Assembly (NCBI GenBank): GCA_964435065.1
Contig: CAYSXS010000001.1
Location: 20,538-84,537, forward strand
Length of the DNA stretch: 64,000 bases
Direction of reading: 5' to 3'
Source of the DNA: an uncultured Gammaproteobacteria bacterium
GTDB lineage: Bacteria; Patescibacteriota; Patescibacteriia; UBA2196
The translations under genes were made by a program, and so were the position numbers. Positions 15,679 to 44,703 of this stretch are shown here, one piece after another (positions within the stretch are counted from its first letter, which is position 1; every line of letters begins with the position of its first letter). The notes under the pieces are model-generated. The model was not told the origin of the DNA, did no database searches, and was given only the letters and a program-made list of their open reading frames with translations.

Positions 15679-15681
15679 AGT

Positions 15682-24852: not shown

Positions 24853-26064
24853 ATGTTGAAAGTATTGATTGTCAGTTTGAGGAGTCCTTTTTTGGATTCC
24901 GATAAGGTTTTTCCTCATTTGGCTATATTGTATTTAAAAGCAGTGCTGGATAAGGAAGGAATAGAAAATCAACTTGAGGATAGTTTTGATTTTAATAACC
25001 CTCAAAAATATTCTGGTTTTACTCATTTTGCAATATCTGCTTTATCTTCCCAAATGTTAGAGGCAGATAAAATTCTTGATTTTAAAGAAAAATATTTTCC
25101 AAATATTAAAATAATTTTAGGTGGCCCTGCCTCAACATTCTATTTGGATGAATGTCGAGGGAAATCCTATGATTATTTAGTGGTCGGAGATGGAGAAAAA
25201 GCTATTTTAGAAATTTTATATGATCAAACAGGAAGAATAGTTCAAGACCAAATGACAAGAGATGAAATGAATTTGATGCCAATACCTTTTAGATCAGCAG
25301 AGTTTTTAAATAAGTATGTGTATCATCTTGACAAAGTTCGTGTTACAACTGTGATGACGTCAAGGGGTTGTCCATTTGGATGCGATTTTTGTGAGCACGC
25401 TAGAACAAAAGTTAGGTTATGTACACTAGAGCATATTGAACAAGAGATTATTAATATTAAAGAAATTGGTTTTGGTGGGATTATGTTTTTTGACGATTTG
25501 TTTGCTATGACACTAAAAAGAGTAAAAGATATTGGTCCTATTATTAAAAAACATAACATGATTTTTAGGTGTTTTGGTCATTCTAACACTATGACAGAGG
25601 AAATAGCAGAAACTCTTGCAGACAATGGATGTAAAGAAATAGGTGTTGGGTTTGAAAGTGGTGCACAATCTATTTTGGATGCTGTAAAACACCCAAGAAC
25701 AACTATTGATAAAAATTTAGATTTTGTTAAACTTTGTCATAAGTTTGGTATACGTGTAAAATCTTTTTTTGTTCTAGGTTTGCCCGGCGAAACTGCTGAG
25801 ACAGCCTTGTTAACAGAAAAATTTATCGAAGATTCAGGTGTTGATGATTTTGATTTAGCTGTTTATTATCCTTATCGAGGAACCAGGATAAGAGATAAAA
25901 TGGAAGAATATGATTTAACTTTTGTTGGTAATGGTGAGGAGAATGCAGTTGGTTACTATAAAGGATATGGTGGACATGCAGAAGCCATTATTAACACCTC
26001 TGCTTTATCTGCAGGAGAGATTGTAGCAATAAAAGACAGGATTTTTGAGAAGTATAAGAAATAA
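24853..26064 (+). CDS. Cobalamin-binding (class B) radical SAM enzyme
   Basis: N-terminal B12-binding-like Rossmann domain (IKIILGGPASTF, DYLVVGDGE) followed by the radical SAM CxxxCxxC motif TSRGCPFGCDFCEH. An RBS GAGGAGG precedes the start. Confidence 0.85.
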   Translation: MLKVLIVSLRSPFLDSDKVFPHLAILYLKAVLDKEGIENQLEDSFDFNNPQKYSGFTHFAISALSSQMLEADKILDFKEKYFPNIKIILGGPASTFYLDECRGKSYDYLVVGDGEKAILEILYDQTGRIVQDQMTRDEMNLMPIPFRSAEFLNKYVYHLDKVRVTTVMTSRGCPFGCDFCEHARTKVRLCTLEHIEQEIINIKEIGFGGIMFFDDLFAMTLKRVKDIGPIIKKHNMIFRCFGHSNTMTEEIAETLADNGCKEIGVGFESGAQSILDAVKHPRTTIDKNLDFVKLCHKFGIRVKSFFVLGLPGETAETALLTEKFIEDSGVDDFDLAVYYPYRGTRIRDKMEEYDLTFVGNGEENAVGYYKGYGGHAEAIINTSALSAGEIVAIKDRIFEKYKK

Positions 26065-26076
26065 TAAGTTTATTTG

Positions 26077-26115
26077 TCCCACAATATTCAATTGTGGGGC
26101 ATATTTATTTTCTTG
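26077..26115 (+). terminator. Rho-independent-like terminator
   Basis: CCCACAAT-attca-ATTGTGGG followed by a T-rich tract. Confidence 0.55.
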
Positions 26116-26148
26116 ATTTTATAGTCAAAATCATGGTTTAATTAAGAT

Positions 26149-27237
26149 ATGATAAATATATTAAAAAACATTAAAAACCTATATAGAGCCTATGATAAAA
26201 TGTTAATAGTTCATTTTATTAAACATCTATTTAATAGGTCTTGGCCTCCATATGGTTTAATCCTCTATGTTACTAATAGATGCAACAGCCGTTGCATCAT
26301 GTGTTTTAATTGGAAAATTTTAAATAAAGATTTACAGAATGAATTAACTTTAGAAGAAATAGATAAATTTACAAAAAAAATTGGGAAATTAAAATCAGTT
26401 GGTTTGGGTGGCGGAGAGCCGTCTTTAAGATCTGATTTACCAGAAATTGTTAATTTATTTGTTAAAAACAACAAAGCATCGGTTGTTTTTATTGCTTTTA
26501 ATTCTTTATTACCTGACAGGACTGCAGAACAAGTAGAAGCAATTTTTAAAAAATCACCTGATGTTAGTTTAAAAATTGGTTTATCATTAGATGGGGTAGG
26601 TGATGTTCATGATAAAGTACGTGGTGTTGAAGGTAATTTTGAAAAGTTTTTACAGACATATAAAAAACTGGATGATTTAAAAAAGAAATACCCAAGGTTA
26701 AGAACTAGAATTTGTACTACAGTTTTAAACCAAAATCTTAGTAATATACCAGAATTAATTGAATATGCAAAAGAAAATCTTAAATCAAGTTTTCATGGTT
26801 TAGAATTAGTTAAGGGTAGTGTCCCACAAGCAGACACAAAAGGGTTGGATCTTGAGGAGTATGAGAAAGTAATTAAATCAATTGAAGAAAACGAAAAGGA
26901 TAGTAAAAATATTTATAGAAGGATAATTAATCCACTTTACCAGAAGATGTGTGTTTATGTTTTAAAGCATAAGAAACAGGTCGTACCTTGTAGGATGTCA
27001 AGCTTTATGCCAGTCATTGATGCCCAAGGTAATGTGTATCCTTGTGAGGGTAGAGGAAAAATTGGAAATTTACGTGAAGCAAATTATGATTTAAAAAATA
27101 TTTGGCAATCAGATGGTGCAAAAACTGAAAGAAAGAAAATTAAGCAAGAAAAGTGTTTTTGTACACATTCAGTTTATCAAATTCCAAATGTATATATGAG
27201 TCCTAAAATGTTGTTAAAAATAATTTTTAGTAAATAG
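26149..27237 (+). CDS. Radical SAM enzyme with a C-terminal SPASM/twitch-like Cys-rich domain
   Basis: YVTNRCNSRCIMCFNW (CxxxCxxC), and C-terminal cysteines CRMSSF...YPCEGRG...CFCTHS. Confidence 0.8.
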   Translation: MINILKNIKNLYRAYDKMLIVHFIKHLFNRSWPPYGLILYVTNRCNSRCIMCFNWKILNKDLQNELTLEEIDKFTKKIGKLKSVGLGGGEPSLRSDLPEIVNLFVKNNKASVVFIAFNSLLPDRTAEQVEAIFKKSPDVSLKIGLSLDGVGDVHDKVRGVEGNFEKFLQTYKKLDDLKKKYPRLRTRICTTVLNQNLSNIPELIEYAKENLKSSFHGLELVKGSVPQADTKGLDLEEYEKVIKSIEENEKDSKNIYRRIINPLYQKMCVYVLKHKKQVVPCRMSSFMPVIDAQGNVYPCEGRGKIGNLREANYDLKNIWQSDGAKTERKKIKQEKCFCTHSVYQIPNVYMSPKMLLKIIFSK

Positions 27238-27238
27238 T

Positions 27239-28171
27239 ATGTATTTAAGTGTTGTTATCCCAACTCATAATAGGAAAGATTGTTGTAAAGAAGTTTTGCT
27301 ATCTTTTAATAATCAAAACTTTAAAGATTTTGAAATAGTAGTTATTGATGATGGCTCAAAAGAGTGTATTGAGGACATGATAAATAATTTAGAAGTATCT
27401 TTTCCTATACGTTTTGTTCGTCAAGAAAATTTAGGACAAGGCTCAGCTAGGAATTTAGGCATTAAAAATTCTCAAGGGGAAATAATCTTTTTTATAGACG
27501 ATGATTGTATTCCAGTCGACCCAGATCTCTTAAGAATACACGCAGAAGCCCATAAAAATGCTAATAACAACAAGGCAGTATTTTTGGGCTTAACTATATT
27601 ACATCCATCTATAAAAATTACACCTTTTGTTAAATATATTGATGGTTATCATTTGGCATATGATAAAATAACAGACCCAAATAATGTGCCTCCAGGATGT
27701 TTCTATACAGACAATGTTTCTGTTAGTAAAGAGTTTTTAATTCAATCGGGCATGTTTGATGAAGGGTTTTTCCCTAATGCAGCATATGAGGATGGGGAAT
27801 TAGGTTATCGTTTGCATAAAAATGGTATGAAAATGTCTTTTATTCCTGAAGCAAAAGTATGGCACAATAACCATATAACATTTAAGTCATACCCACATGA
27901 TATGTGGAAAAGAGGTTATTGGTCTGTACGTTTAGCTGAAAAAGTTCCAGAGTTGAAATATAAGACAAATATAAATGAAACAAAGAATATTTTTAAATTA
28001 ATTTTAAAAAGAATCATTTTTAATAAAGTCATTATGAATTTCTGTGTTAAAGTAATAAGTTTTCTTGATAAAAACAATATAAAAATTCCAATAGTTGTTT
28101 ACAGGAAAGTGTTAGATTTTTATAAAATACGAGGAATTAAAGATTATAAAAAAGAAAAAGGATTAATATGA
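27239..28171 (+). CDS. Glycosyltransferase family 2
   Basis: LSVVIPTHNRKDCCKEVLLSF...FEIVVIDDGS... and a DxD region (FIDDDCIP). Confidence 0.8.
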   Translation: MYLSVVIPTHNRKDCCKEVLLSFNNQNFKDFEIVVIDDGSKECIEDMINNLEVSFPIRFVRQENLGQGSARNLGIKNSQGEIIFFIDDDCIPVDPDLLRIHAEAHKNANNNKAVFLGLTILHPSIKITPFVKYIDGYHLAYDKITDPNNVPPGCFYTDNVSVSKEFLIQSGMFDEGFFPNAAYEDGELGYRLHKNGMKMSFIPEAKVWHNNHITFKSYPHDMWKRGYWSVRLAEKVPELKYKTNINETKNIFKLILKRIIFNKVIMNFCVKVISFLDKNNIKIPIVVYRKVLDFYKIRGIKDYKKEKGLI

Positions 28172-29094
28172 ACGATCAGCCTAAAATTTCTATTATCATA
28201 GCAAACTATAATGGGCAAGAGTTTTTGGCTGATTGTTTAGAATCAATTTTAAAATCTGATTATTCAGATTTTGAAGTTATCTTGGTTGATAATAACTCTA
28301 CCGACGATTCAGTAGAAATAATTAGAAATCAATTTCCTCAGGCAAAACTCATTATTAATAAAAAGAACTTAGGTTTTTCTAGAGCTAATAATATTGGTAT
28401 AGAACAGGCAAGCGGGGATGCTTATTTATTAATAAACAATGATACAATAATAAAACCTGATTTAGTTAAAGTTTTAAGCAATGAATTGTTTAGTTCAGAA
28501 AAAATAGGGATTGTTGGCCCAAAGATTTATTTCTTAGAAAAAGGGAAAGATTTAGAAAACCAAAAAACTATTTGGTTTGCTGGTGGTAAAATTGATTGGC
28601 AAAAAGCCAAAAGTTGGCATATTAGTAGAAATAAAGATGATTACAAAGATGAAAAAAAAGAAGTAGATTTTATTACAGGATGTACTTTAATGATAAAAAA
28701 AGAAGTTGTTGAAAAAATTGGGCTACTTGAAAAAAAGTTTTTTGCCTACTATGAAGATGCTGATTGGTGTCAACGAGCAAAAAAAGCAGGTTACAAGGTA
28801 TTATATATACCTTTTGGTGGTGTATGGCATTTAAAGTCAGCTACAGCTAGTCGTCACATTTTTAATAAAAATAGTAGTAAGATAAAGATTGTCTTGGAAT
28901 ATCTTAGTAATCTTAACCGTTTAAAATATAATCAATGGCGTAATCGTTTTATTTTTTATATACGTTGGCAGCCTAGAAAATATTTATTTAGATTTTTAAT
29001 AGATTTTATAATTTTAAAAACACCAATTTTTATTTATTCGATTTTGGTTCTAAGTCCAATTTCTTTAATTAAAATAGTTAAAAATCATTTATGA
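28168..29094 (+). CDS. Glycosyltransferase family 2 with a C-terminal membrane segment
   Basis: ISIIIANYNGQEFLADCLESI...FEVILVDNNSTDDS, and the DxD motif LINNDTII. Confidence 0.8.
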   Translation: MNDQPKISIIIANYNGQEFLADCLESILKSDYSDFEVILVDNNSTDDSVEIIRNQFPQAKLIINKKNLGFSRANNIGIEQASGDAYLLINNDTIIKPDLVKVLSNELFSSEKIGIVGPKIYFLEKGKDLENQKTIWFAGGKIDWQKAKSWHISRNKDDYKDEKKEVDFITGCTLMIKKEVVEKIGLLEKKFFAYYEDADWCQRAKKAGYKVLYIPFGGVWHLKSATASRHIFNKNSSKIKIVLEYLSNLNRLKYNQWRNRFIFYIRWQPRKYLFRFLIDFIILKTPIFIYSILVLSPISLIKIVKNHL

Positions 29095-30659
29095 ATAAAA
29101 AAATTAAAATTTTACTTATTGTTTTAGTTTTATTTGTAGTATCGATGGCTGTTCATTATTATCCTGTTTACAAAAAAGATTACAGTTTTGGGTTTAATGG
29201 TGGAAATTTAATTTTAGCTCGCAATTTTGCTGAAACAGGTCAGTTTAATTTAGAAAGTCCAGAAAATGTTATTTTAAACAGTCAGTTATCGGCTGAGGAG
29301 GGAATGTATTATAATCCAGGAAATGAATTGACTTATATAATATATGGTAATATTTTTAAATATTTTGGCTTTCAGAAAAATTTAGCTTTGTATTTATCAA
29401 TTTTACTATGGGCATTGAGTGGAACGATTTTATTTTTCTTAGTTAAGAAGTTATTTAATTTAAAAACAGCAATAATCTTTGGTGTAGTTACTATTTTTCT
29501 GCCATTTATTTTACAGGGGGTATTAATAAGTGGTTTTTATGAATGGGCGATTTTGTTTTTTTCTATTGCTTTGTTTTTGTTTTTTAATATAAAGGAAAAG
29601 TTTTTTTGGCTTAATCTCATATTAGCCGGTATATTTTTTAGTTTAGCGGTTTTATGTAGAAATGTTTTTGTTGTTTCAGTTATACCGTTTGTTATATATG
29701 AATTTTATCGTCATAGATCAATTAAGAAACTACTTTATTTATTATTACCAATTATATTGATTTTAGGTATTTTTTTTGGTAGTACAATAGTAAGTGGGCA
29801 AAAGAGTGACTATTTATCCAAAGAGGATTCAAATTTCTCTAATTATAGTCATCTTTATCCGGATCCATATACTTTTCATTTTGAAAAAGAAGAGTACCTT
29901 GAAACAATACAAGGTACTTCAAATTCAATGTTTTCTGAATATTTACTTAAGTATGACCAAAAGGTTAGTTTAAAGAATCAAATTATTATGTATTTTGCTT
30001 CAATTAAATTTTACCCTAAGGAATTTATTAAATTAATAATATCAGGTGGACCATTAATTATATTATTAATGTTTTTGGGCATATATTATTTATTTAAAAA
30101 AGACAAGAGATTGTTTAAATTGTTTATGTTGTGGTTTGTTGTTTGGTATGTTTTATTAGTTATTTTAAAAACAAATAACTGGGATCATTTTCTTGAGTTA
30201 AGTTGGCCTATAGGATTATTAATTGCATTAGGGATATATTATTTATTTGATTTTATTTGTAAATTAGAGATAAAAAAGAATTTTAAGTATCTAGCACTTG
30301 TTTTAATAAGTTTATGTATAATCTTACATTTTATGCAGGCTAATAAATGGATGTTGCATGAAGAATATAATACTTCAAATATAGACACTGTTATGGCACT
30401 TGTACCGTTTATTGATAATGCAGATATTGGGAACAAGGATGTTGTTGTTACTAGCCATCACCCAGGAACACCATTGATACTTAATTATTATACTAATAAG
30501 AATTTTATATATTTTCATACTGAGACAATAAAAAAACTGCTAGCCGAAGAAAGCTTACAGTCTGCTTTTCAAAAGTTTGGGGTAACTCACATTGTTGGAT
30601 TTGATAATGATTTAAGTAATCAAATATATACTCAAACTTCTGTAAATATAATTAAATAG
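29091..30659 (+). CDS. GT-C fold membrane glycosyltransferase (ArnT/PMT-like)
   Basis: Multi-TM protein. The first-loop region FNGGNLILARNFAETGQF resembles the ArnT 'YAEIAREMLETGDW' motif. Confidence 0.5.
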   Translation: MNKKIKILLIVLVLFVVSMAVHYYPVYKKDYSFGFNGGNLILARNFAETGQFNLESPENVILNSQLSAEEGMYYNPGNELTYIIYGNIFKYFGFQKNLALYLSILLWALSGTILFFLVKKLFNLKTAIIFGVVTIFLPFILQGVLISGFYEWAILFFSIALFLFFNIKEKFFWLNLILAGIFFSLAVLCRNVFVVSVIPFVIYEFYRHRSIKKLLYLLLPIILILGIFFGSTIVSGQKSDYLSKEDSNFSNYSHLYPDPYTFHFEKEEYLETIQGTSNSMFSEYLLKYDQKVSLKNQIIMYFASIKFYPKEFIKLIISGGPLIILLMFLGIYYLFKKDKRLFKLFMLWFVVWYVLLVILKTNNWDHFLELSWPIGLLIALGIYYLFDFICKLEIKKNFKYLALVLISLCIILHFMQANKWMLHEEYNTSNIDTVMALVPFIDNADIGNKDVVVTSHHPGTPLILNYYTNKNFIYFHTETIKKLLAEESLQSAFQKFGVTHIVGFDNDLSNQIYTQTSVNIIK

Positions 30660-30667
30660 TTATATCC

Positions 30668-31612
30668 TTATTCCTTATTTATTAAGACGTCAGGTTTTTT
30701 ATCCACGTCTTTTATTGTTGATAAACTTTTTATAAAAAATAAACCCAATACAGCAATAATCCAATAACCAAAGATAGAATATAGTATTCCTAAACTCAAA
30801 TTTATGTTTGCTGGAGCTACACCTGCGAATAAATATACAATAGCTGAGTCTCTAGTACCCATACCTGCCAGTGTCACTGGCAATATCCCAATAAACAAGG
30901 CTATTGGAAGTGTTAAACAAATAAAAATAAAGGAAACTTGTATACCTAATGCAAGATATAAGAAATATACTTGTAAAAAGGTTCCTAACCAGTTTAATAA
31001 AGTTATTAAAGCAATTTGTATGAATTGTTTTGGTTTTTTGATTAATATCTTTGAGCAATAGAAAACATTATTAATTTTTTCTCTATATTTATCTTTTATC
31101 GGTAATTTCATTTCATTTATATATTTTGCCAAGATAAAAAAAATAACAATAGCTATAAGGCCAGCTATCATTATTAATACAATTATTGTGTTTTTGTAAA
31201 TTATCCCGCCAATGAGAGCTAAAATTAGTAGAAGTAATATATCAAAAACTCTTTCTATTAAAATACTTCCAGCTGTCTTGCTTACGGGTACAGAATTCTT
31301 AATAGGGTTAGCTCGGATTAAATCACCTGCTTTTGAAGGAGTAACACTTGATAGAGACCATGCTCCCATTACGATTTTAAATGCTTTCCAAAAACTTAAG
31401 CTAAAACCCATTGAATTTAAAATGATGCGCCATCTAAGTGCACCAAAAACTGGATAGGTTAGTATTACTGAAAAAGTTGCTAACAGCCACCAAAGATTAG
31501 CATTTAATATAATATTCCAAACAGAATTAAGATCGATTTGTCTGAAAAGCAAATAAAAAACAACAAAAGTTGTAATTAAAATAATAAAGAATTTTAAATA
31601 TTTTTTTATCAT
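30668..31612 (-). CDS. Flippase-like domain membrane protein (UPF0104 / LPG-synthase TM-region family)
   Basis: 8 TM helices with the pattern ...YPVFGALRWRIILNSMGFSLSFWKAFKIVMGAWSLSSVTPSKAGDLIR... Confidence 0.55.
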   Translation of the reverse strand: MIKKYLKFFIILITTFVVFYLLFRQIDLNSVWNIILNANLWWLLATFSVILTYPVFGALRWRIILNSMGFSLSFWKAFKIVMGAWSLSSVTPSKAGDLIRANPIKNSVPVSKTAGSILIERVFDILLLLILALIGGIIYKNTIIVLIMIAGLIAIVIFFILAKYINEMKLPIKDKYREKINNVFYCSKILIKKPKQFIQIALITLLNWLGTFLQVYFLYLALGIQVSFIFICLTLPIALFIGILPVTLAGMGTRDSAIVYLFAGVAPANINLSLGILYSIFGYWIIAVLGLFFIKSLSTIKDVDKKPDVLINKE

Positions 31613-33063
31613 GTTGTTTTTTTGTCTTTTGGGAATGTGTTTTTGATAATAACAGACAAAAGTTTAGAACCAGCCTTAAAGTTATTTTTTAAAGCATCCC
31701 AACTACGTAACTCTTTTAGTCTTCTAAATATATATTTAGGATTTAAATAATATTGGCCATATGCATCAATTAATATCTTATACAATTGTTCACGTGTAAA
31801 TATTTCTTCCCAAGCAGGTGCTTTAAAGTCTGGTTGTGGATTTTTAGAAAACTTTTGCCAATAGTCTTCTTTGATAATATTTTCATTTAACCCTTTAAGG
31901 TATAGGTCGGTTGCGGGGAAAGGTGTTAGCACAGTGAAGTGAACAAAGTCTGGGAACATCTTTTTTGCTAACTTAATAGTTTCTTTAATGTCAGACATTG
32001 TTTCTGTTGGTGATCCAATCATAAAATATCCAGCAGTTTCTATGCCTGCTTCTTTTGTTAGTTTAAAAGCTGTTTCAACTTGTTCTAAAGTAATTCCTTT
32101 ACGTAAGACAGTTAGTATTTTTTTTGTTCCAGCTTCAACTCCATAATGGATACGTGTACAACCAGCAGACTTCATTAACAAAAGTAATTCTTTATCAACT
32201 GTATTAACTCTTGCGCGAATATCCCATTTAAGTTTTATTTTTTTATCTAGAATTAAATTACAAATATTTACTACACGTTGTCTATCAATGGTAAAAGTGT
32301 CGTCGTAAATAAAGACTTCATTAATTCCCATTTCTTGAATTTTCTCCATTTCTTTTACAACATCTTCAGCAGATCTAGCTCTGAATATTTTACCTAAATG
32401 GGGGCGATCACAAAACAAACATTTGTATGGGCAACCACGAGAAGTAAACATAGTAGTGGTTGGGTTTTTGTGAGCCATGATTGAATAATACTTTTTATAT
32501 GGTGTTAATTCGCGTGCAGGCATTGGTAGTTGGTCTAAATCCATTATTAACTCTCTTTTACCTGTATTAACAATTTTTTTGTTTGTATCTCTGAATACTA
32601 GGCCTCGTATATCTTTTAGCTTGTCTAAATCGTGAATATTATTCAATAAATCAATAAATGGCTGTTCTCCTTCACCTAAAACCAAGAAATCAACTTCTAA
32701 GTTATCCATTGTTTCTTCTGGATAGATGTTTACGTGTGGTCCACCTAAAACTATTTTTATCTCTGGATTAACTTCTTTAATTAATTTAGCTGTTTTAATA
32801 ACATCAATTAAAGTAAAAGTCATAGCAGTAATCCCAACTACGTCTGGTTTTTCTTCTTTAATCTTTTCTTGTATATTGGTGTAGTTTACCTTTTCTATTT
32901 CACAGTCTAATATTTTAACATCAAAATTTGTTTTTTCTTTAACATATGCAGCAATATACATTAATCCTAAAGGAGGTAAAAAATCCATGCCAGATTCTAA
33001 TTCTTTTGGCATGTCGCTCTCAATAATATTTTTAATGGGTGGATTAATTAGTAGAATCTTCAT
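31609..33063 (-). CDS. Cobalamin-binding (class B) radical SAM enzyme
   Basis: N-terminal B12-binding domain (KIVLGGPHVN, DFLVLGEGE) followed by the radical SAM motif FTSRGCPYKCLFCDRP. Confidence 0.85.
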   Translation of the reverse strand: MKILLINPPIKNIIESDMPKELESGMDFLPPLGLMYIAAYVKEKTNFDVKILDCEIEKVNYTNIQEKIKEEKPDVVGITAMTFTLIDVIKTAKLIKEVNPEIKIVLGGPHVNIYPEETMDNLEVDFLVLGEGEQPFIDLLNNIHDLDKLKDIRGLVFRDTNKKIVNTGKRELIMDLDQLPMPARELTPYKKYYSIMAHKNPTTTMFTSRGCPYKCLFCDRPHLGKIFRARSAEDVVKEMEKIQEMGINEVFIYDDTFTIDRQRVVNICNLILDKKIKLKWDIRARVNTVDKELLLLMKSAGCTRIHYGVEAGTKKILTVLRKGITLEQVETAFKLTKEAGIETAGYFMIGSPTETMSDIKETIKLAKKMFPDFVHFTVLTPFPATDLYLKGLNENIIKEDYWQKFSKNPQPDFKAPAWEEIFTREQLYKILIDAYGQYYLNPKYIFRRLKELRSWDALKNNFKAGSKLLSVIIKNTFPKDKKTT

Positions 33064-33799
33064 AAAGATATTTTTCTATGGAAACACAATCAAATCTTTT
33101 AACAATATATTGTAACTTTTTCCAAGTATTTTTAGTGTTATAGTATTTAAGGAATTTTTTAATAAATGTCATTTTAATATTTGGTACCTCAGTTGCAAAA
33201 TCAAATGGATGAAAATATAAACAAGTAGATTTTTTAATCGTTTTGTTTTTCAATAAGGTTTTAAATAAAAACCAGGGGATAGCTCTGATATAAAAACCAC
33301 CACTAAAAACTTTTATTTCTTTAAAATTATCTATATTAAATAAATTAGGTTTTATACTTAAAGGCAATATTGAAGAGTCATATTTTAAATTATTTTCTTT
33401 TAATACTTTTATTGACCACTCTGTAGATTTATTTAATGAAAAATTAACTGCTCGATGTCCAATTGGTTTTTTGTCGATTAAACTTTCAATCTGACTGATT
33501 AATTGTTTAATTTCTTCATTAAACATTTCTGGATTTTTATCCCACAATGGTTTATGGTCTGAAGAATGAACAGCAATTTCGTGACCAGCATTAGAAATTT
33601 GTTTTACTACATTTGGTTCTTTGTCTAAAACTTTTTTAGTAACAAAGAAGGTAGCAGTTGAATTTGTTTGTTTTAATAAGTTTAATAGGTTATTAATAAA
33701 GGTTGCCACTTCGTCCTTTTCATTACCAAGTAAATATTTTTGTATAGAGAGTGATTCAAACCAATACTCTAAATCAAATGTAAGTAAAATCTTTTTCAT
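33044..33799 (-). CDS. Polysaccharide deacetylase (NodB homology, CE4), ArnD/NaxD-like
   Basis: LTFDLEYWFE...ATFFVTKKVL...AGHEIAVHSSDHKPLW, which covers the NodB motifs TFD(D) and H-S-x-x-H. Confidence 0.75.
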   Translation of the reverse strand: MKKILLTFDLEYWFESLSIQKYLLGNEKDEVATFINNLLNLLKQTNSTATFFVTKKVLDKEPNVVKQISNAGHEIAVHSSDHKPLWDKNPEMFNEEIKQLISQIESLIDKKPIGHRAVNFSLNKSTEWSIKVLKENNLKYDSSILPLSIKPNLFNIDNFKEIKVFSGGFYIRAIPWFLFKTLLKNKTIKKSTCLYFHPFDFATEVPNIKMTFIKKFLKYYNTKNTWKKLQYIVKRFDCVSIEKYLYEDSTN

Positions 33800-33800
33800 G

Positions 33801-34703
33801 TTATTTTCTATTTAACTCTCTACGGATAGCAGCAAGTTGATCAGCTATTAAACCAAAGAAAAAGATTAAAACCGAAGTTATGAATAATAGGACGGTACTA
33901 TCAGTGATGTTGTTAAATTCAGAAATTAAAATATCATTTATGAATAGGCCTAAGAATCCTAAGAAAAATAAACCACTGATTGGTAAAAAGATTCGTAAAG
34001 GTGAGAAAAGCATAATTAAGCGGATTATCAACATAAAATAGGTGAGTGCATCTTTTGGGTTAACTAGACTTTTTCCACTATCACGTTTATTTATTTCAAG
34101 AGGGACAAATTTAATATTTAACTTTTCTTTAAGAAAAGCAAAGACACTTGTAGTTGAACAAGAAAAACCATCTGGATATAAATGTTCGAATCGTAAAAAT
34201 TCGTCACGTTTTATTAATCTTAATCCACAATTAAAGTCATTTACTTTATGACCCAATAAATATCTAGCTAACCAATGGATAACCTTTTTGCCTGGTTGGC
34301 GAATCCATGGACCTTGGTAACCTTGTCTTTCTCCAGCTATTAGATCATATTCATCTGTGTATTTTAGCATTTCTTCAATATACTTTGGGTTATGTTGACC
34401 ATCTGCATCAAAAGTTAAAACCCAATCATGTTTAGCATTCTTAGCTCCAGTTTTTAGTCCAGCACCGTATCCCTTATTGTATGAATGATTAATGGTTTTA
34501 ATATTTTCAATACTTTCAAGAACACTTTTTGTATTATCTGTAGAAGCATCGTTGATTACTATAATTTCAAAATTTTCTAAATTTAAATTATTTAGTGTAT
34601 TTTTTAAATTATCTAATACAGATTTAATACTGTCAGCTTCGTTGTATGCTGGTATAATAACTGAAATGTTTTTAGTTTGAGGGTTATTCATATTATTTAT
34701 CAT
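33801..34703 (-). CDS. GT2 polyprenyl-phosphate sugar synthase (GtrB/ArnC/DPM1-like) with C-terminal TM helices
   Basis: ISVIIPAYNEADSIKSVLDNL...FEIIVINDASTDNT...FDADGQH, and two C-terminal TM segments. Confidence 0.75.
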   Translation of the reverse strand: MINNMNNPQTKNISVIIPAYNEADSIKSVLDNLKNTLNNLNLENFEIIVINDASTDNTKSVLESIENIKTINHSYNKGYGAGLKTGAKNAKHDWVLTFDADGQHNPKYIEEMLKYTDEYDLIAGERQGYQGPWIRQPGKKVIHWLARYLLGHKVNDFNCGLRLIKRDEFLRFEHLYPDGFSCSTTSVFAFLKEKLNIKFVPLEINKRDSGKSLVNPKDALTYFMLIIRLIMLFSPLRIFLPISGLFFLGFLGLFINDILISEFNNITDSTVLLFITSVLIFFFGLIADQLAAIRRELNRK

Positions 34704-35646
34704 AATAATCTAGGTACCAATTAACAAAATTCTTAATACCAGATTTTATTGTTGTTTGTGGTGAGAAATTTAACATTTTTTGTGCTTTTGATAAATCTGC
34801 TTGAGTTTCTAACACTTCACCTGTTTGTATTGGGATATATTCTCGTATAGCTTTTTTATCTAAATATTTTTCTATTAATTCAACAAATTTTATTAATTCA
34901 ATTGATTCATTGCTACCAAGATTAAAAATTTCATAATCAAACGGGTTTTCTAAGGCCAAGGCTGTTCCATTAACAATATCGTCAACATACGACCAATTTC
35001 TTTTCATTTTTCCATTGTTATGTATATTTATTGGTTTATTTTCTAAAATGTTTTTTGTAAAAAGGAAAAGTGCCATATCTGGACGTCCCCACGGGCCATA
35101 AACCGTGAAGTATCTTAATCCAGTTGATTTTATGTTATGCACTTTATAATAACTATATGCAATCATCTCTGTGGCGATTTTAGAAGTAGCATAAAAAGAA
35201 AGTGGGGTTTGTGTTCTGTCGTTTTCTGAAAAAGGAAGCTTCTTGTTATCCCCATAGACACTAGAAGAAGAAGCATAAACAATTTGTTTAATATTAAATT
35301 CTTTTGCTAATTCAAAAATATTTAAGGTGCCTAGAATATTTGTTTGTTCGTATGCAAAAGGGTTTTCTACAGAATAACGTACACCAGCTTGAGCAGCTAA
35401 GTGAACAATTTTATCTATTTTATTCTCTTTAAAAACTTCCCTTAGTTTTTGTATATCAGAAATGTCAATTCTGTATAACTTAAAATTAAAACCTTTTAAT
35501 AAGATTTTAATTCGATCTTCTTTTAATTGGGGGTCATAATAATCATTGAAATTATCAACAATAATTATATTATGATTTTGTTGGATTAACTTTTTAGCTA
35601 CCTGTGATCCAATAAAACCAGCTCCACCTGTTATTAAAATATTCAT
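34693..35646 (-). CDS. NAD-dependent sugar-nucleotide epimerase/dehydratase (SDR; GalE/WbpP-like 4-epimerase candidate)
   Basis: MNILITGGAGFIGSQVAKKL (GxxGxxG), and the catalytic YxxxK motif (YATSK). Confidence 0.75.
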   Translation of the reverse strand: MNILITGGAGFIGSQVAKKLIQQNHNIIIVDNFNDYYDPQLKEDRIKILLKGFNFKLYRIDISDIQKLREVFKENKIDKIVHLAAQAGVRYSVENPFAYEQTNILGTLNIFELAKEFNIKQIVYASSSSVYGDNKKLPFSENDRTQTPLSFYATSKIATEMIAYSYYKVHNIKSTGLRYFTVYGPWGRPDMALFLFTKNILENKPINIHNNGKMKRNWSYVDDIVNGTALALENPFDYEIFNLGSNESIELIKFVELIEKYLDKKAIREYIPIQTGEVLETQADLSKAQKMLNFSPQTTIKSGIKNFVNWYLDYYDK

Positions 35647-35672
35647 ATATACTTTATATCATTTTTTGTTAT

Positions 35673-37091
35673 CTATTGTCCACCACCACTAAGAACTGTC
35701 TTAATCGTTTTAAGTAATATAGATAAATCTAAAAAGAATGATCTGTTTTTTATATAGTAAAGATCATATTGTAATTTTTCTAAAGCATCCTGTTCTGAAG
35801 CACCGTAAGGAAAATTAATTTGTGCCCAACCAGATAATCCTGGTTTGATTAAATGGCGTTGGTTATAGAAAGGAATCTTTTCAGCTAACTGAGTTACAAA
35901 TTCAGGTCTTTCTGGTCTAGGACCAATAAAGCTCATTTCACCTTTAAGAATATTAAATAATTGAGGAATTTCATCAATTCTTGTTTTACGCATAATTCTA
36001 CCACTACGTGTAATTCTAGGATCATTTTTTTGGGCCCATTGAGGACCATTAGTTTCAGCCCTTCTATTCATACTACGTATTTTAACAGCTAAAAATGATT
36101 TATTATTCTTTCCAGTTCTTTTTTGTTTAAACAAGAATGGCCCAGGACTGTTAAGCCTAACTATCATATATATGAAAGGAATGAATACTAAGGTTAGAAC
36201 CAAAAATACAGAAGCTATAAATATGTCCATAACTCTTTTAGATATTTGATAAATAGATTTTGATTCCTCGTTTAGGTTTTCTAAAAACCAAATTTGTCCA
36301 ATGGAGTTTACAGGAATTTTACCTGTAAATTTTTCTAAAAACGTAGGTAAATCAAATATTGTAATTTTTTCAGACAAACAATCATAAAGATCAGCAATTA
36401 ATTTTTGATCTTGTCGTATATCTGTACCAGCAATAATGGTTGATATTTTTTCTTCAATAATTAATTTCTTTAAGCTACTGGGTGCATCAATTAAATTAAT
36501 ACTTTCTGGTAAATCAGTTTCTAAAGGAAGTTGACCATCACGAGTTATTGCTACAACCTTGAAGCCAAGTTGTGGTTTGTTGTTAATTTCACTGGCCAAG
36601 TCAATAATTGAAGGTGAGTGTCCTAAAATTAAAACATTACTTTGTAAAGCAGTAGCACCAGCCAGCTTATTAAACAACTGTCTCCAGAGGATTAATAGTA
36701 AGGTAAATATTAAAAGCTGTATGAACAAGTTTGTCTTTGGAGCAATACCAGCATCAAATAAATAGAAGAAAGTAATTGCTAAACCAACACACCAAGAGAT
36801 GCTTTTAAAGAAATTGGCGAAAAACATAGTATTGTTTTTTGCCAAACTTAAATCATAGAAACTGGTGATGTAAAAGACAATTATCCATAGAACAAAGATT
36901 AATGTAAATGGAATAAAGTGTTGAGCCCATCTTTCTGTTGTTACGGCCTGATTGTACCTAATTAGTAAAGTTAGCCATAACGAAAAATAGAGAATAAAGA
37001 CATCTCCGATAAACAATGATATTTTTTTAATTCTTGTGGCTGTATTAATCATAACTAGTGGTATTGTACAATATTTCTTAAAAAGATGCAA
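35673..37091 (-). CDS. Polyprenyl-phosphate glycosyl-1-phosphate transferase, the initiating 'sugar transferase' (WbaP/CpsE family)
   Basis: C-terminal bacterial sugar-transferase domain KRVMDIFIASVFLVLTLVFIPF...GPFLFKQKRTGKNNKSFLAVKIRSM...DEIPQLFNILKGEMSFIGPRPERPEF. Confidence 0.85.
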   Translation of the reverse strand: MHLFKKYCTIPLVMINTATRIKKISLFIGDVFILYFSLWLTLLIRYNQAVTTERWAQHFIPFTLIFVLWIIVFYITSFYDLSLAKNNTMFFANFFKSISWCVGLAITFFYLFDAGIAPKTNLFIQLLIFTLLLILWRQLFNKLAGATALQSNVLILGHSPSIIDLASEINNKPQLGFKVVAITRDGQLPLETDLPESINLIDAPSSLKKLIIEEKISTIIAGTDIRQDQKLIADLYDCLSEKITIFDLPTFLEKFTGKIPVNSIGQIWFLENLNEESKSIYQISKRVMDIFIASVFLVLTLVFIPFIYMIVRLNSPGPFLFKQKRTGKNNKSFLAVKIRSMNRRAETNGPQWAQKNDPRITRSGRIMRKTRIDEIPQLFNILKGEMSFIGPRPERPEFVTQLAEKIPFYNQRHLIKPGLSGWAQINFPYGASEQDALEKLQYDLYYIKNRSFFLDLSILLKTIKTVLSGGGQ

Positions 37092-37156
37092 GTTTATATT
37101 TTTATTTATCCTAACTGTGGTATAATTGTATCAACTTTGGGTGTGATAGATTTTGG

Positions 37157-37185
37157 TTGACATTTTACTTAACTAAGTATATGAT
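37157..37185 (+). promoter_or_regulatory. Putative sigma70 promoter for brnT
   Basis: TTGACA - 17 nt - TATGAT, about 25 nt upstream of the 37211 start. Confidence 0.45.
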
Positions 37186-37210
37186 GAACATATACATAAT
37201 GATATAATTT

Positions 37211-37516
37211 ATGTTAGATTTATCAAAATTAAATGGATTTGAGTGGAATAATGCGAATGTGGATAAAAATTGGAATAAACACAAGGTTTATTGGAGAGAG
37301 TGTGAAGAAGTTTTTGTGGATTTACCTTTGTTGATTTCTTTAGATAAAAATCATTCACAAATAGAAATGAGATTTCATGCTTTAGGAAAGACGAGTGATA
37401 ATAGAAAATTATTTATAGTTTTTACTATTAGAAATAAGAAAATAAGAATAATTTCGGCTCGGAATCAGAACCGAAAAGAAAAAGAAATATATGACAAAGC
37501 AAAAAAAACAATTTAA
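37211..37516 (+). CDS. brnT: BrnT-family toxin (DUF497 ribonuclease toxin)
   Basis: FEWNNANVDKNWNKHKV...ECEEVF...RFHALGKTSDNRKLFIVFTIRNKKIRIISAR matches the BrnT fold signature. It overlaps the downstream antitoxin. Confidence 0.7.
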   Translation: MLDLSKLNGFEWNNANVDKNWNKHKVYWRECEEVFVDLPLLISLDKNHSQIEMRFHALGKTSDNRKLFIVFTIRNKKIRIISARNQNRKEKEIYDKAKKTI

Positions 37517-37775
37517 AAAAATACCTTTATTTAAAAACGAAAATGAAGAAATAGAATTTTGGGCAAACAACGACTCGACAGATTATATTAATTGGTCCGA
37601 ATCAGTTGTAAATCCAGAACTTCCTAATCTTAAGCTTTCTACAAAAAGTATATCTTTACGTTTACCTGTTCTTCTTTTGGATCGTTTAAAATCTTTAGCT
37701 AATCGTCGTGATGTTCCGTATCAATCCTATATCAAAATAATTTTAGATGAAAAAGTAAAGAATGAATTAAAATAA
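37491..37775 (+). CDS. brnA: BrnA-family antitoxin
   Basis: FKNENEEIEFWANNDSTDYINWSES...PNLKLSTKSISLRLPVLLLDRLKSLANRRDVPYQSYIKIIL matches the BrnA consensus (FWxxHDSTDYxDWS...ISLRLP...A..RDVPYQSLIK). Confidence 0.7.
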   Translation: MTKQKKQFKKIPLFKNENEEIEFWANNDSTDYINWSESVVNPELPNLKLSTKSISLRLPVLLLDRLKSLANRRDVPYQSYIKIILDEKVKNELK

Positions 37776-42713: not shown

Positions 42714-43715
42714 ATGAATTATCCTTCAGGCAAAAAAAATATTTTAATTACTGGTGGGGCCGGTTTTATTGGCTCTCATTTATGTGATATCTTAGCTAAA
42801 GACAATCATGTAATTTGTATAGACAATTTTATCACTGGTAGTGAAAAACACATTGACCACTTACTTAAGAATCCTAACTTTGAGTTTATTAAACACGATG
42901 TCTCAGAACCTTTTAAGTTTGAAGATTTTCCTGAGTTAAAACAGTTTAAAGCAGAACTTCAAGGTGTTCAAGAAATTTATCATTTAGCTTGTCCAACTTC
43001 ACCTAAAGAATATAACAGGTTTCCAATTGAAACTTTAATTACAAACTCTCATGGTACGTTAAATACATTGCAGATAGCTAAGAAGTTTGGATCAAAGTTT
43101 TTGCTTCTTTCAACATCAGCAATATATGGAGATCAAGAAGGACATGTAAAAGAAGATAACTGGGGGAGTATTAATCCAATTGGCCCACGTTCTTGCTATA
43201 ACGAAGGTAAAAGGTTTACTGAAAGTTTAACTAGAAGTTTTCACACAAAAGAAGAAGTTGATACTAAAATAGCTAGAGTATTTAATACTTATGGCCCAAG
43301 AATGAAATTAGATGATGGTCGTATGATCCCAGACTTTATTGTGAACTCTCTGAAGAGTGAACCAGTTACTGTTTTTGGTTCAGAAGAAGAACAAGGAAGC
43401 TATTGCTATGTTCAAGATATGGTGGAAGGAATTATTCAATTAATGGCTGCAGATATTAATACACCTGTTAATTTAGGCAGTGATCACGCAGTTAAATTAG
43501 TTGATGTTGCTAAAAAAGTAATTAAAATGACAACCAGTGAATCAAAGATTGAATTTAAAGAATATCCTCCATATACAGCTAAACAAATTATCCCAGATAT
43601 TTCTTTAGCAAAAGAAACCTTTGATTGGTTCCCAATGGTTGGCTTAGATGATGGTTTAGAAAAAACTATTGAAAATATGCGTGTAAACTTAGGGGAATAC
43701 AAGGCAGAGCTTTAA
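42714..43715 (+). CDS. NAD-dependent epimerase/dehydratase, UDP-glucuronate decarboxylase-like (UXS/ArnA C-domain type)
   Basis: ILITGGAGFIGSHLCDIL, followed by a catalytic YNEGKR (YxxxK) motif. The overall pattern matches UXS1-type enzymes. Confidence 0.65.
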   Translation: MNYPSGKKNILITGGAGFIGSHLCDILAKDNHVICIDNFITGSEKHIDHLLKNPNFEFIKHDVSEPFKFEDFPELKQFKAELQGVQEIYHLACPTSPKEYNRFPIETLITNSHGTLNTLQIAKKFGSKFLLLSTSAIYGDQEGHVKEDNWGSINPIGPRSCYNEGKRFTESLTRSFHTKEEVDTKIARVFNTYGPRMKLDDGRMIPDFIVNSLKSEPVTVFGSEEEQGSYCYVQDMVEGIIQLMAADINTPVNLGSDHAVKLVDVAKKVIKMTTSESKIEFKEYPPYTAKQIIPDISLAKETFDWFPMVGLDDGLEKTIENMRVNLGEYKAEL

Positions 43716-43718
43716 ATT

Positions 43719-44378
43719 ATGAATATATACATAATCATACCGGTTTTTAATGAGGAGAATAACATCCAAACAACTTTGGGAGATTTAAAACAGTATGGTT
43801 ATACAATAATAGTAGTTGATGATGGTTCAAAAGATAAGACAGTAGAGATAGTAGAATCAATGAATGTAAAGGTGTTGAAACATAAAGTTAATCGTGGACA
43901 AGGAGCAGCTCTTCAAACAGGTACAACTTATGCAGTTCAAAAAGGAGCAGATATTATTGTACACTTTGATGGTGATGGTCAATTTTTAGCACAAGAGATT
44001 AAAGATTTAATTGAACCAATTAAATTTGAAAATTTAGATATTACTCTTGGATCAAGATTTTTAAAAGAAAATAAAGGAATGCCATGGCTAAAGAAATATA
44101 TTATCCATCCTGTTTCTAGAGTTATTAATACAATTTTTACAAGAATAAAGTTAACAGATGTGCATTGTGGTTTTCGGGCTTTATCAAAACAAGCAGCTGA
44201 GAAAATATATATTACACAAGATGGAATGTCTCATGGAACAGAGATTATTTCCCAAATCAAGAAATATGGGTTAAAATATCGAGAAGTTCCTGTAACGGTT
44301 ATATATAAAGAGTTTGGGCAAGGAATTAAAGGAGGATTTAATATATTAAAAGAATTATTATTAGGTAAATTTGTATAA
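43719..44378 (+). CDS. GT2 glycosyltransferase, soluble catalytic domain of the DPM1/Ppm1 type
   Basis: IIIPVFNEENNIQTTLGDL...IIVVDDGSKDKT...FDGDGQF. It has no TM helix, and the next gene is a small membrane protein. Confidence 0.7.
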   Translation: MNIYIIIPVFNEENNIQTTLGDLKQYGYTIIVVDDGSKDKTVEIVESMNVKVLKHKVNRGQGAALQTGTTYAVQKGADIIVHFDGDGQFLAQEIKDLIEPIKFENLDITLGSRFLKENKGMPWLKKYIIHPVSRVINTIFTRIKLTDVHCGFRALSKQAAEKIYITQDGMSHGTEIISQIKKYGLKYREVPVTVIYKEFGQGIKGGFNILKELLLGKFV

Positions 44379-44700
44379 ACATATGTTAATTCAAATCCTT
44401 TTATCAATATTTATACTTTTTGCAATTATTAGATTAATTGTGAAATTTAAAAAAACTGATGCTAAAGCATCAGGTTCATTATGGTTATTGTTTTGGATAA
44501 TAACTGTTGTAGCTGTTTGGGTACCAGATTTTTTAACTCAAGTAGCTAATCTGGTTGGTATTGGTCGTGGTGCAGATTTAGTTTTGTATGTTAGTGTTGT
44601 CGTTGTTTTTTATTTAATTTTCAAAATATATGTTAGATTAGAAAAGATAGAAAGGAATATTACTAAAGTAGTAAGAAAAGATAGTCTTAAAGAAGATTAG
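44371..44700 (+). CDS. Small membrane protein (DUF2304-like), a probable membrane partner of the upstream GT2
   Basis: 109 aa with 3 TM helices. It overlaps the upstream GT2 by 8 nt. Confidence 0.45.
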   Translation: MYKHMLIQILLSIFILFAIIRLIVKFKKTDAKASGSLWLLFWIITVVAVWVPDFLTQVANLVGIGRGADLVLYVSVVVVFYLIFKIYVRLEKIERNITKVVRKDSLKED

Positions 44701-44703
44701 GAT

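Follow-up and report, generated by a model that had tools for sequence, protein, structure and literature searches.

The stretch of DNA analysed here is a 64,000-nt window of contig CAYSXS010000001.1 (G+C about 29%; all coordinates are window positions), whose proteins have their nearest relatives in metagenome bins of Patescibacteria. It carries a gene module in which a B12 (cobalamin)-binding radical S-adenosylmethionine (SAM) enzyme, hereafter rSAM, stands among genes resembling those of lipid-linked glycosylation. Starting from the first gene, the minus strand encodes an initiating phosphoglycosyltransferase (PGT), a 4-epimerase-like short-chain dehydrogenase/reductase (SDR), a family 2 glycosyltransferase (GT2), a NodB-type deacetylase, the rSAM and a flippase-like membrane protein of the UPF0104 family, and a glycosyltransferase of the GT-C fold is encoded convergently (Table 1). 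All seven open reading frames (ORFs) were recovered in an ORF listing of the window with the gene content and coordinates given by an earlier first-pass annotation, whose family assignments were borne out by profile hidden Markov model (HMM) searches against Pfam and NCBIfam and, for the GT-C enzyme, by AlphaFold modelling and Foldseek. The minus-strand genes overlap by 4 nt (UPF0104/rSAM), 20 nt (rSAM/deacetylase) and 11 nt (GT2/SDR) or are separated by 1 nt (deacetylase/GT2) and 26 nt (SDR/PGT), a packing that fits an operon. The stop codons of the UPF0104 and GT-C genes lie 8 nt apart, and at its other end the GT-C gene shares 4 nt with the plus-strand GT2 gene before it. The divergent intergenic region upstream of the PGT gene is the probable site of the promoter for the minus-strand operon; promoter-like hexamer pairs, which are consensus matches only, occur there on both strands at 37157-37226 and reach slightly into the brnT ORF, and in the promoter/terminator scan the region as a whole was not enriched over shuffles.

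Table 1. Features of the rSAM module (first seven rows) and of its surroundings
Feature	Position	Strand	Length	Remark
PGT (initiating phosphoglycosyltransferase)	35673-37091	-	472 aa	TTG start as listed; first gene of minus-strand operon
SDR 4-epimerase-like enzyme	34693-35646	-	317 aa	
GT2 polyprenyl-phosphate sugar synthase (predicted)	33801-34703	-	300 aa	
NodB/CE4-type deacetylase	33044-33799	-	251 aa	
B12-binding radical SAM enzyme (rSAM)	31609-33063	-	484 aa	
UPF0104 flippase-like membrane protein	30668-31612	-	314 aa	
GT-C	29091-30659	+	522 aa	convergent with UPF0104; last gene of plus-strand glycan operon
Divergent intergenic region, PGT to BrnT/BrnA	37092-37210		119 nt	
BrnT/BrnA toxin-antitoxin pair	37211-37775	+		CopG-type
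Plus-strand glycan operon	8537-30659	+		ends with module GT-C
11-TM protein	13861-15678	+	605 aa	no Pfam match
PMT_2 GT-C	15682-17028	+	448 aa	PMT_2, 55 bits
11-TM protein and PMT_2 GT-C as a pair	13861-17028	+		
Second, short B12-binding rSAM	24853-26064	+	403 aa	best profiles PhpK and HpnJ, far below cut-offs
SPASM rSAM	26149-27237	+		plus-strand operon
Second polyprenyl-phosphate-sugar unit	42714-45735	+		SDR, PpgS-like GT2, DUF2304, another GT2
PpgS-like GT2 of that unit	43719-44378	+	219 aa	closest to mycobacterial PpgS (168 bits, below cut-off)
PpgS-like GT2 and DUF2304 pair	43719-44700	+		separate from module
RNase P RNA, bacterial class A	56841-57214	+		Rfam, 107 bits (gathering score 100)

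The rSAM combines a B12-binding domain (PF02310, 102 bits) with a Radical_SAM domain (PF04055, 100 bits), and the cysteines of its CX3CX2C motif (C211, C215 and C218) are invariant across 18 orthologues. Its structural model (pLDDT 80.7) comprises a Rossmann domain, a partial TIM barrel and C-terminal helices; the nearest structures are AprD4, then TsrM, MgmA (9ccb; PMC11796369), OxsB, CysS and TokK, with identities of about 20%. The sequence and the model together point to a class B (cobalamin-dependent) architecture, and cobalamin use is predicted. AprD4 is the closest solved protein both by sequence (99 bits) and by structure (TM-score 0.70-0.75), its profile covering only the radical SAM half of the enzyme (residues 169-400). 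AprD4 has a similar N-terminal domain but is not known to bind cobalamin. No NCBIfam model scored above its cut-off, the highest scores being those of HpnJ (231; cut-off 577.6), BchE (219; cut-off 481), ApyD (195) and PhpK (181), followed by the profiles of the ladderane enzyme, BzaD, MgmA and HpnR. A genuine plasmid-borne HpnJ is 25% identical to the rSAM, and BchE is 28-30% identical.

The GT2 protein (Glycos_transf_2, 116 bits in Pfam) has PgfS, AglJ, ArnC and PpgS as its top NCBIfam matches, all below their cut-offs and all polyprenyl-phosphate sugar synthases, and its best solved relatives in the Protein Data Bank (PDB) are ArnC (9hwj, 77 bits), then GtrB and DPMS. With its D-A-D motif and its two to three hydrophobic helices at the C terminus, it belongs by sequence to the ArnC/GtrB/DPMS polyprenyl-phosphate class (GT-A fold) with a predicted lipid acceptor, as the first-pass annotation had proposed, and not to the processive synthases. 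The deacetylase consists of a Polysacc_deac_1 domain (PF01522, 67 bits) and a C-terminal DUF3473 domain (53 bits), with TIGR03006 as its best NCBIfam match (132 bits; cut-off 276), and keeps D9, H78-x3-H82, R-A-x-N-F and YDSS, its first motif reading D-L-E against the canonical D-D. Its sequence contains no transmembrane (TM) or signal segment, and it is predicted to be a cytoplasmic NodB/CE4-type de-N-acetylase. The polytopic UPF0104 protein matched LPG_synthase_TM (PF03706, 155 bits; cut-off 33.4) and TIGR00374 (103 bits; cut-off 43.2); a phmmer search of the PDB gave no match for it, its family membership being drawn from Pfam. The family (COG0392) includes MprF-flippase-like proteins, PplT and the AglD C-terminal domain, which makes the window protein a putative flippase for the modified lipid-linked sugar.

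The GT-C enzyme reached 23.5 bits with PMT_2, under the gathering score of 26.1 (some homologues carry PF13231), and its sequence profile matched nothing in the PDB. An AlphaFold model built from 30 homologues (pLDDT 91.9), with about 10 TM helices and a C-terminal soluble domain of about 70 residues, was matched by Foldseek with probability 1.0 to STT3/PglB/AglB (E = 5e-8 to 2e-5) and ArnT (6e-5), and also to ALG12 and Pmt4. The modelling confirms the GT-C fold, and the protein is a putative extracytoplasmic transferase of the modified sugar; true oligosaccharyltransferases have a large soluble domain, which it lacks.

To place the module among its relatives, we collected rSAM homologues, more than 3,400 of which reached E < 1e-20; the 120 best show 58-100% identity and come mostly from Patescibacteria, with some from DPANN. 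Because a wider search of 1.84 billion representatives returned relatives of 35-46% identity as a continuum with no clean family boundary, orthology was defined by synteny together with the score gap within the fetched loci, where orthologues reach at least 470 bits and paralogues at most 320 bits. A scan with one genome per species confirmed rSAM relatives in 337 genomes, and ORFs were called and clustered in the best 80 loci of these (49-75% identical to the query), to which the neighbourhood counts below refer. These loci span Patescibacteria, Brocadia and other Planctomycetota, Nitrospirota, Chloroflexota, Deltaproteobacteria, Omnitrophota, Acidobacteriota, Verrucomicrobiota and Eisenbacteria among the bacteria, and Nanohaloarchaea, Aenigmatarchaeota and Methanosarcinales among the archaea. 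A membrane-anchored GT2 lies no more than three genes upstream of the rSAM on the same strand in 57 of the 70 evaluable loci, from about ten phyla, and immediately upstream in 40 of the 70; C-terminal TM helices were present in 59/61 of the upstream GT2 proteins. A class-I methyltransferase stands beside the rSAM in 48/80 loci and a GT-C of clusters 5, 19 or 22 in 27/80, followed in frequency by a second B12-rSAM paralogue (23/80), UPF0104 after the rSAM (19/80), a PGT upstream of the GT2-rSAM pair (17/80), a nitroreductase-family protein (16/80), a SPASM rSAM (16/80) and the deacetylase between GT2 and rSAM (13/80), with the deacetylase, UPF0104 and PGT mostly confined to Patescibacteria. The cross-phylum core is GT2 plus rSAM, often with a class-I methyltransferase and a GT-C, kept across domains of life, and de-N-acetylation, at only 13/80 loci, is an accessory step.

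The window GT-C is a member of the cluster-5 family (HMM score 595 bits), whose gene lies convergently beside the module in 20 loci (L001-L003 and 19 species loci), and Pfam pointed to further GT-C neighbours, namely PMT_2 proteins in a Chloroflexia locus (L054) and in L041, PA14 plus PMT_2 proteins in Brocadia, a TMEM260-like protein with TPR in L051 and a YfhO/PTPS_related protein in a Methanosarcinales genome (L035). A polytopic protein (at least 400 aa and at least 8 TM) was present within 8 kb in 46/80 loci, many of the others being short contigs, and L051 has a compact operon of overlapping same-strand genes in the order GT2, deacetylase, rSAM, methyltransferase and GT-C. The first-pass annotation had expected the six-gene set to be conserved as a block, which is true of the nearest relatives and of many Patescibacteria, whereas elsewhere only GT2 and rSAM remain, often with methyltransferase and GT-C. 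Thus, a contig 89% identical carries the PGT, a 173-aa ORF, SDR, GT2, deacetylase, rSAM, a UPF0104-methyltransferase fusion and the convergent GT-C, and one 82% identical carries the PGT, a small rSAM, GT2, deacetylase, rSAM, UPF0104 and the convergent GT-C.

Several variations on this arrangement were observed. The nitroreductase-family protein (218 aa; PF00881, 91 bits; for example L008 2364-3020), which is not in the window, lies between GT2 and rSAM in 16 loci, including L004, L005, L008-L010, L015, L016, L049, L056, L059, L072 and L080, often together with a methyltransferase, and could serve as redox partner or carry out one more tailoring step. The second B12-rSAM paralogue (250-320 bits) often follows the main one (L003, L007, L010, L018, L020-L022, L036, L059, L078 and L080) and in several of these loci stands right before UPF0104, an order implying that in some Patescibacteria one radical step follows another. 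Five giant proteins (P0238, 2096 aa; P0269, 2331; P0288, 2279; P0310, 2633; P0352, 1879) with up to six rSAM-like stretches are apparently tandem multi-rSAM polypeptides. Relatives of 30-32% identity on Desulfovibrionaceae plasmids lie in glycan loci beside a PpgS-like GT2 plus DUF2304 and many methyltransferases.

Domain fusions link the tailoring enzymes to the UPF0104 protein. The rSAM is fused N-terminally to UPF0104 in P0023 and P0024 (about 797 aa) and in L003 (10001-12394), and UPF0104 is fused N-terminally to a class-I methyltransferase in the nearest relatives P0158 and P0160; the 314-aa window protein is without the methyltransferase domain found on its 84%-identical relative, and the window has no close orthologue of that methyltransferase. 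Since both fusion partners need cytoplasmic SAM, both UPF0104 termini must be cytoplasmic, and the fusions would tether tailoring enzymes to the putative translocator. They are the strongest indirect evidence, arguing for a substrate that is embedded in the membrane and modified before flipping. Within the family, flippase activity has been demonstrated experimentally only for MprF (PMC5898192, PMC12713373), and the fusions allow an independent approach to the question whether polyprenyl-linked sugars, besides phospholipids, are flipped by UPF0104 proteins. HpnL could not be confirmed as a UPF0104 protein, and no match to an HpnL model was obtained; hpnL has no established function (PMC12583986).

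From the observed protein families, folds, motifs, operon packing, cross-phylum synteny and domain fusions, we infer the substrates, step order, flipping, acceptor and radical chemistry of a pathway to which we give about even chances as a whole, namely three-component lipid-linked glycosylation extended by a radical SAM tailoring step. The module would be a four-step version of the decoration of surface glycans or proteins with a sugar carried on polyprenyl phosphate. At the cytoplasmic face of the membrane, the GT2 would use a UDP-sugar to load undecaprenyl phosphate with a hexose-type sugar, in the window genome most likely an N-acetyl-hexosamine and possibly the 4-epimer from the adjacent SDR; the soluble NodB-type enzyme would then strip the N-acetyl group, and the rSAM would alter an unactivated carbon of the lipid-linked sugar, preferably by C-methylation as in GenK and MoeK5, with AprD4-type deoxygenation or another radical rearrangement nearly as likely. 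UPF0104 would flip the product, and the convergent GT-C would transfer the sugar outside the cell to an acceptor made by the surrounding locus, either a Wzx-pathway glycan initiated by the operon PGT or a protein. The accessory enzymes vary by genome, with a deacetylase in the window and a methyltransferase or nitroreductase elsewhere. The general logic that the first-pass annotation had read from the locus, a synthase, cytoplasmic tailoring, a flippase-like protein and a GT-C with an embedded B12-rSAM, is supported, and its lipid-linked aminosugar agrees with the deacetylase present here but does not extend across the family, where the deacetylase is optional. Orthologues with and without an adjacent deacetylase are alike in being about 60% identical to the window enzyme; the radical reaction, judged by these sequences, therefore probably does not depend on a free amine.

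This arrangement shares parts with several known systems. Bacterial three-component systems are represented by GtrA/B/V, CsbB/GtcA/YfhO and GacI/K/L; like these, the module combines an ArnC/GtrB/DPMS-class GT2 with a translocator in the membrane and a GT-C, but it differs in having a B12-rSAM between synthase and flippase, often a methyltransferase and sometimes a nitroreductase-like protein, and in lacking a GtrA-family flippase. In the Arn pathway, in the Francisella FlmF2/NaxD/FlmK pathway (NaxD being of the YdjC family) and in the mycobacterial PpgS/Rv3632/Rv3779 pathway, which places galactosamine (GalN) on arabinogalactan, an aminosugar on undecaprenyl or decaprenyl phosphate is made by a GT2, de-N-acylated on the lipid and transferred by a GT-C. 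The module shares the logic of these pathways and is orthologous to none of them, and the Arn/Flm parallel drawn by the first-pass annotation holds for that logic and not for orthology. Its GT2 scores 76 with the ArnC model (NF007986; cut-off 529), a likeness that is architectural only, its deacetylase scores 17.7 with ArnD (cut-off 382), and UPF0104 stands in place of ArnE/F. No ArnA- or ArnB-like ORF was detected among those scanned against Pfam and NCBIfam, a scan of the surroundings that ran from 8537 to 48749. Closer precedents, missed by the first-pass annotation, are found in archaea, where UPF0104 (arCOG00899) was described as an MprF-flippase homologue, predicted glycosylation flippase and AglD C-terminal domain by Makarova et al., and where gene neighbourhoods combine an AglD-like GT2 with UPF0104 and a PMT/STT3-like GT-C, or a deacetylase with a glycosyltransferase and UPF0104 (PMC5898192). 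The skeleton of GT2, UPF0104 and GT-C is accordingly not new, having been predicted in 2015, and it is the radical SAM insertion that appears undescribed: full-text literature searches for a GT2-rSAM association, or for such a pathway in the candidate phyla radiation (CPR) or anammox bacteria, found no description, in agreement with the first-pass annotation, and reviews of B12-rSAM and lipid-modifying rSAM enzymes up to 2026 mention no enzyme acting on polyprenyl-phosphate sugars (PMC12931638, PMC13459092).

A second group of precedents consists of the synthase-deacetylase-UPF0104 operons GpgSDF, for glucosaminyl (GlcN)-phosphatidylglycerol in P. aeruginosa, and HexSDF of C. difficile, which make aminoglycolipids and in which GpgF and HexF are the predicted UPF0104/MprF-type flippases (PMC12713373, PMC10128005). 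They share with the module a synthase, a cytoplasmic de-N-acetylase, a UPF0104/MprF-like flippase and the logic of a lipid-bound N-acetylhexosamine (HexNAc), and they suggest an end product of another kind, a modified membrane glycolipid (of the GpgSDF/HexSDF type or like the hopanoid cyclitol ether) that UPF0104 would flip outward, the GT-C being unrelated. The rSAM-UPF0104 fusions of some genomes would suit such a product as well, and the order of glycosyltransferase, deacetylase and rSAM mirrors that of HpnI, HpnK and HpnJ (PMC13459092), which in bacteriohopanetetrol cyclitol ether biosynthesis add N-acetylglucosamine (GlcNAc) to the lipid, deacetylate it and remodel the sugar with a B12-type rSAM (PMC13459092, PMC12583986). 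We consider the glycolipid improbable, since GpgS (GT4) and HexS (MGDG-synthase-like) are GT-B enzymes acting on glycerolipids in operons without rSAM or GT-C, whereas the module GT2 is consistently of the ArnC/GtrB/DPMS polyprenyl-phosphate type with two TM helices. Several GT-C families moreover adjoin the pair in distant phyla, including the same-strand operons of L051, L054 and L041, most loci outside Patescibacteria keep GT2 and rSAM without UPF0104, and UPF0104 is also the C-terminal domain of AglD, an archaeal GT2 protein of N-glycosylation (PMC5898192).

As to the reaction of the rSAM within the preferred architecture, the first-pass annotation had inferred C- or N-methylation or another modification. 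Homology does not imply methylation, nor does it decide between methylation and other radical chemistry: the nearest characterised relatives (AprD4, HpnJ and BchE) are non-methylases and all are distant. According to published work, HpnJ, BchE and OxsB are not methylases, HpnJ falls into one cluster with the methylases Fom3 and MoeK5 when a sequence-similarity network is drawn at a stringent threshold, and MoeK5, GenK, GenD1 and Fms7 are B12-rSAM sugar C-methylases, MoeK5 being implicated in a carbon methylation of moenomycin A biosynthesis (PMC9204698). The class B architecture is common to MoeK5, GenK/GenD1, Fms7, AprD4 and the module enzyme; the former belong to actinomycete secondary metabolism, the latter to a cell-envelope family of CPR, DPANN, anammox and mostly uncultured lineages. 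MoeK5 reportedly works on a sugar already joined to a lipid phosphoglycerate. Since the co-conserved GT-C still needs a glycosyl donor, a change that leaves the anomeric centre intact (a C-methyl or deoxy sugar) is favoured, and because C-methylation is the commonest class-B reaction on carbohydrates, C-methylation of an undecaprenyl-phosphate-hexosamine is weakly favoured; given the proposed architecture, we put its likelihood at even or somewhat below.

Non-methylating chemistry is nearly as likely within that architecture because a separate class-I methyltransferase, which may cover methyl transfer, is usual and the nitroreductase-like protein, a possible redox partner, is sometimes present. 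The enzyme might then catalyse an AprD4-like 1,2-diol dehydration, an epimerisation, an oxidation or an HpnJ/Cds-like ring rearrangement, an alternative that we hold to be rather unlikely when weighed with all others. AprD4, its closest PDB match, is a radical SAM diol dehydratase acting on the glucosamine ring of paromamine; the two top profiles are those of non-methylases, and HpnI-HpnK-HpnJ follows the same logic of glycosyltransferase, deacetylase and rSAM on a lipid-bound GlcNAc. Yet all these matches lie far below the family cut-offs, the AprD4 profile leaves the canonical N-terminal B12-binding domain uncovered, C-methylation is what most of the characterised B12-rSAM enzymes with sugar substrates catalyse (PMC9204698), and from the chemistry of glycosyl transfer a ring-contracted carbocycle would be an implausible donor for the co-conserved GT-C. 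HpnJ-type ring contraction was rejected as the leading assignment on the grounds that true HpnJ is so distant, that the carbocycle does not suit the GT-C and that the ORFs scanned contain no hopanoid context, with no HpnH orthologue (best score 44; cut-off 225) and no other hopanoid-type match.

The preferred reading places the radical step on the lipid-linked sugar, after the GT2. The rSAM might instead act before the GT2 on a nucleotide sugar, or on the polyprenyl chain or a peptide, its adjacency to the GT2 reflecting only membership of a mosaic glycan locus. The module is indeed embedded in a glycan locus of about 37 kb with two more rSAM genes, five methyltransferases and many glycosyltransferases, such loci are mosaic, and the profile of ApyD, a methylase of peptides made by the ribosome and modified post-translationally (RiPPs), is among the matches. 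The mosaic character is illustrated by L013, where the GT-C (846 bits), two GT2 (558 and 606), SPASM (736) and short B12-rSAM (709) genes are near-identical to those at 24853-30659 of the window while the module rSAM is only 60% identical, suggesting recombination between the two convergent operons. Nevertheless, Brocadia pituitae, for example, keeps the GT2-rSAM pair without a large glycan locus around it, beside a CRISPR and unrelated genes, fusion to a membrane flippase-like domain argues for a membrane-bound substrate, no precursor-peptide gene or RiPP machinery occurs among the conserved neighbours, and the order GT2, deacetylase, rSAM and UPF0104 would be collinear with the processing of a lipid-linked intermediate. 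We regard a substrate other than the lipid-linked sugar as highly improbable. In anammox bacteria, such as Candidatus Brocadia pituitae (complete genome; L040, 9138-17857), the pair is followed by a GT2-methyltransferase fusion or a methyltransferase and by GT-C proteins with PA14 carbohydrate-binding domains. The S-layer O-glycan of Kuenenia, which is not among the loci retrieved, contains a methylated HexNAc of undetermined linkage (PMC5088730).

Several points weigh against the pathway proposed here, all of whose steps are predicted computationally. Patescibacteria are not known to make cobalamin, and the characterised enzymes that score best against the rSAM, namely HpnJ and BchE in profile searches and AprD4 in comparisons of sequence and structure, are non-methylases, none of them close. 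Most loci outside Patescibacteria have neither the deacetylase nor UPF0104, and the top Foldseek matches of the GT-C are oligosaccharyltransferases, which makes a diphosphate-linked oligosaccharide donor possible. The window also carries a second polyprenyl-phosphate-sugar synthase, the PpgS-like GT2, and at least one more GT-C, the PMT_2 protein (Table 1), so that the pairing of the module GT2 with the module GT-C is drawn solely from conserved synteny. Finally, the experimentally supported substrates of UPF0104/MprF-type proteins are glycerolipids, not polyprenyl-phosphate sugars (PMC12713373, PMC10128005).

The two first genes of the minus-strand operon stand somewhat apart. The PGT (Bac_transf, 218 bits; TIGR03025, 386.8, cut-off 295.6; TIGR03013, 401.8, cut-off 393.4) has five hydrophobic segments and is by sequence of the large WbaP/EpsB type; its true start is likely the ATG at 37052, 13 codons downstream of the TTG, since the resulting 459-460 aa match the lengths of homologues. 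The SDR (Epimerase, 201 bits) has 5u4q (333 bits) as its best solved relative, followed by 6zl6, presumably a UDP-GlcA 4-epimerase, then WbgU/WbpP and MoeE5, and resembles 4-epimerases of UDP-uronic or N-acetylhexosamine sugars; its probable role is to supply a UDP-sugar, which may be an epimer of a uronic or N-acetyl-uronic acid. The SDR recurs without being a constant partner, with an orthologue in the same place in the closest relative and an SDR-GT2-rSAM order in the Methanosarcinales locus L035. The first-pass annotation had counted both proteins as members of the module, whereas the gene content of the surrounding locus suggests that the PGT probably works for the main Wzx-type glycan, as the SDR may too, with the GT2, deacetylase, rSAM, UPF0104 and GT-C probably forming a side branch of the glycan locus.

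That locus includes a plus-strand operon with seven GT4 proteins, five class-I methyltransferases, a Wzx-type flippase, two GT2 proteins and the second, short rSAM and SPASM rSAM listed in Table 1; none of the five methyltransferases is a close orthologue of a module-type methyltransferase, with pairwise scores against the locus methyltransferases of at most 50 bits. Glycan loci of this kind are unusually rich in radical enzymes, as the 16/80 count for SPASM rSAM also reflects. The 11-TM protein and the neighbouring PMT_2 GT-C are further candidates for an extracytoplasmic transferase or polymerase. The other flank encodes the toxin-antitoxin pair, a Wzy_C plus TPR protein, a NUDIX protein and an S8 peptidase with FG-GAP repeats; BrnT/BrnA here separates the PGT gene from the Wzy_C plus TPR gene, and in relatives these two genes are directly divergent without an intervening pair. 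The four genes of the second polyprenyl-phosphate-sugar unit also adjoin the module in L003, L007 and L037, and on a Lawsonia intracellularis plasmid (L085) a related rSAM has a GT2 plus DUF2304 set next to it. An Rfam scan of the window detected no cobalamin riboswitch, its sole match being the RNase P RNA, and no tRNA genes were found in the window.

Polyprenyl-phosphate sugars are universal donors for extracytoplasmic glycosylation, and the known tailoring of them is de-N-acylation. If the proposal is correct, a conserved rSAM step adds carbon-centred chemistry to this stage and predicts a new class of surface sugar, and it would be the first case of a radical SAM enzyme acting on a sugar donor bound to polyprenyl phosphate. 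That the GT2 and B12-rSAM pair is an unrecognised, phylum-spanning fourth component, which rewrites by radical chemistry (C-methylation, deoxygenation or rearrangement) the sugar on undecaprenyl or dolichyl phosphate, is a tentative view that we hold to be nearly, but not quite, as probable as its opposite. The rSAM orthologous group is unnamed and sharply defined, and the five-gene operon of L051 offers a tractable set for reconstitution. The family is concentrated where cell envelopes are essentially uncharacterised, in CPR and DPANN episymbionts, anammox bacteria, Omnitrophota and subsurface Chloroflexota and Nitrospirota, organisms whose lifestyle depends on cell-cell contact. If the reading is true, GT-C enzymes would bring an unusual branched or deoxy (amino)sugar to the cell surface in Patescibacteria, DPANN archaea, anammox bacteria and other organisms.

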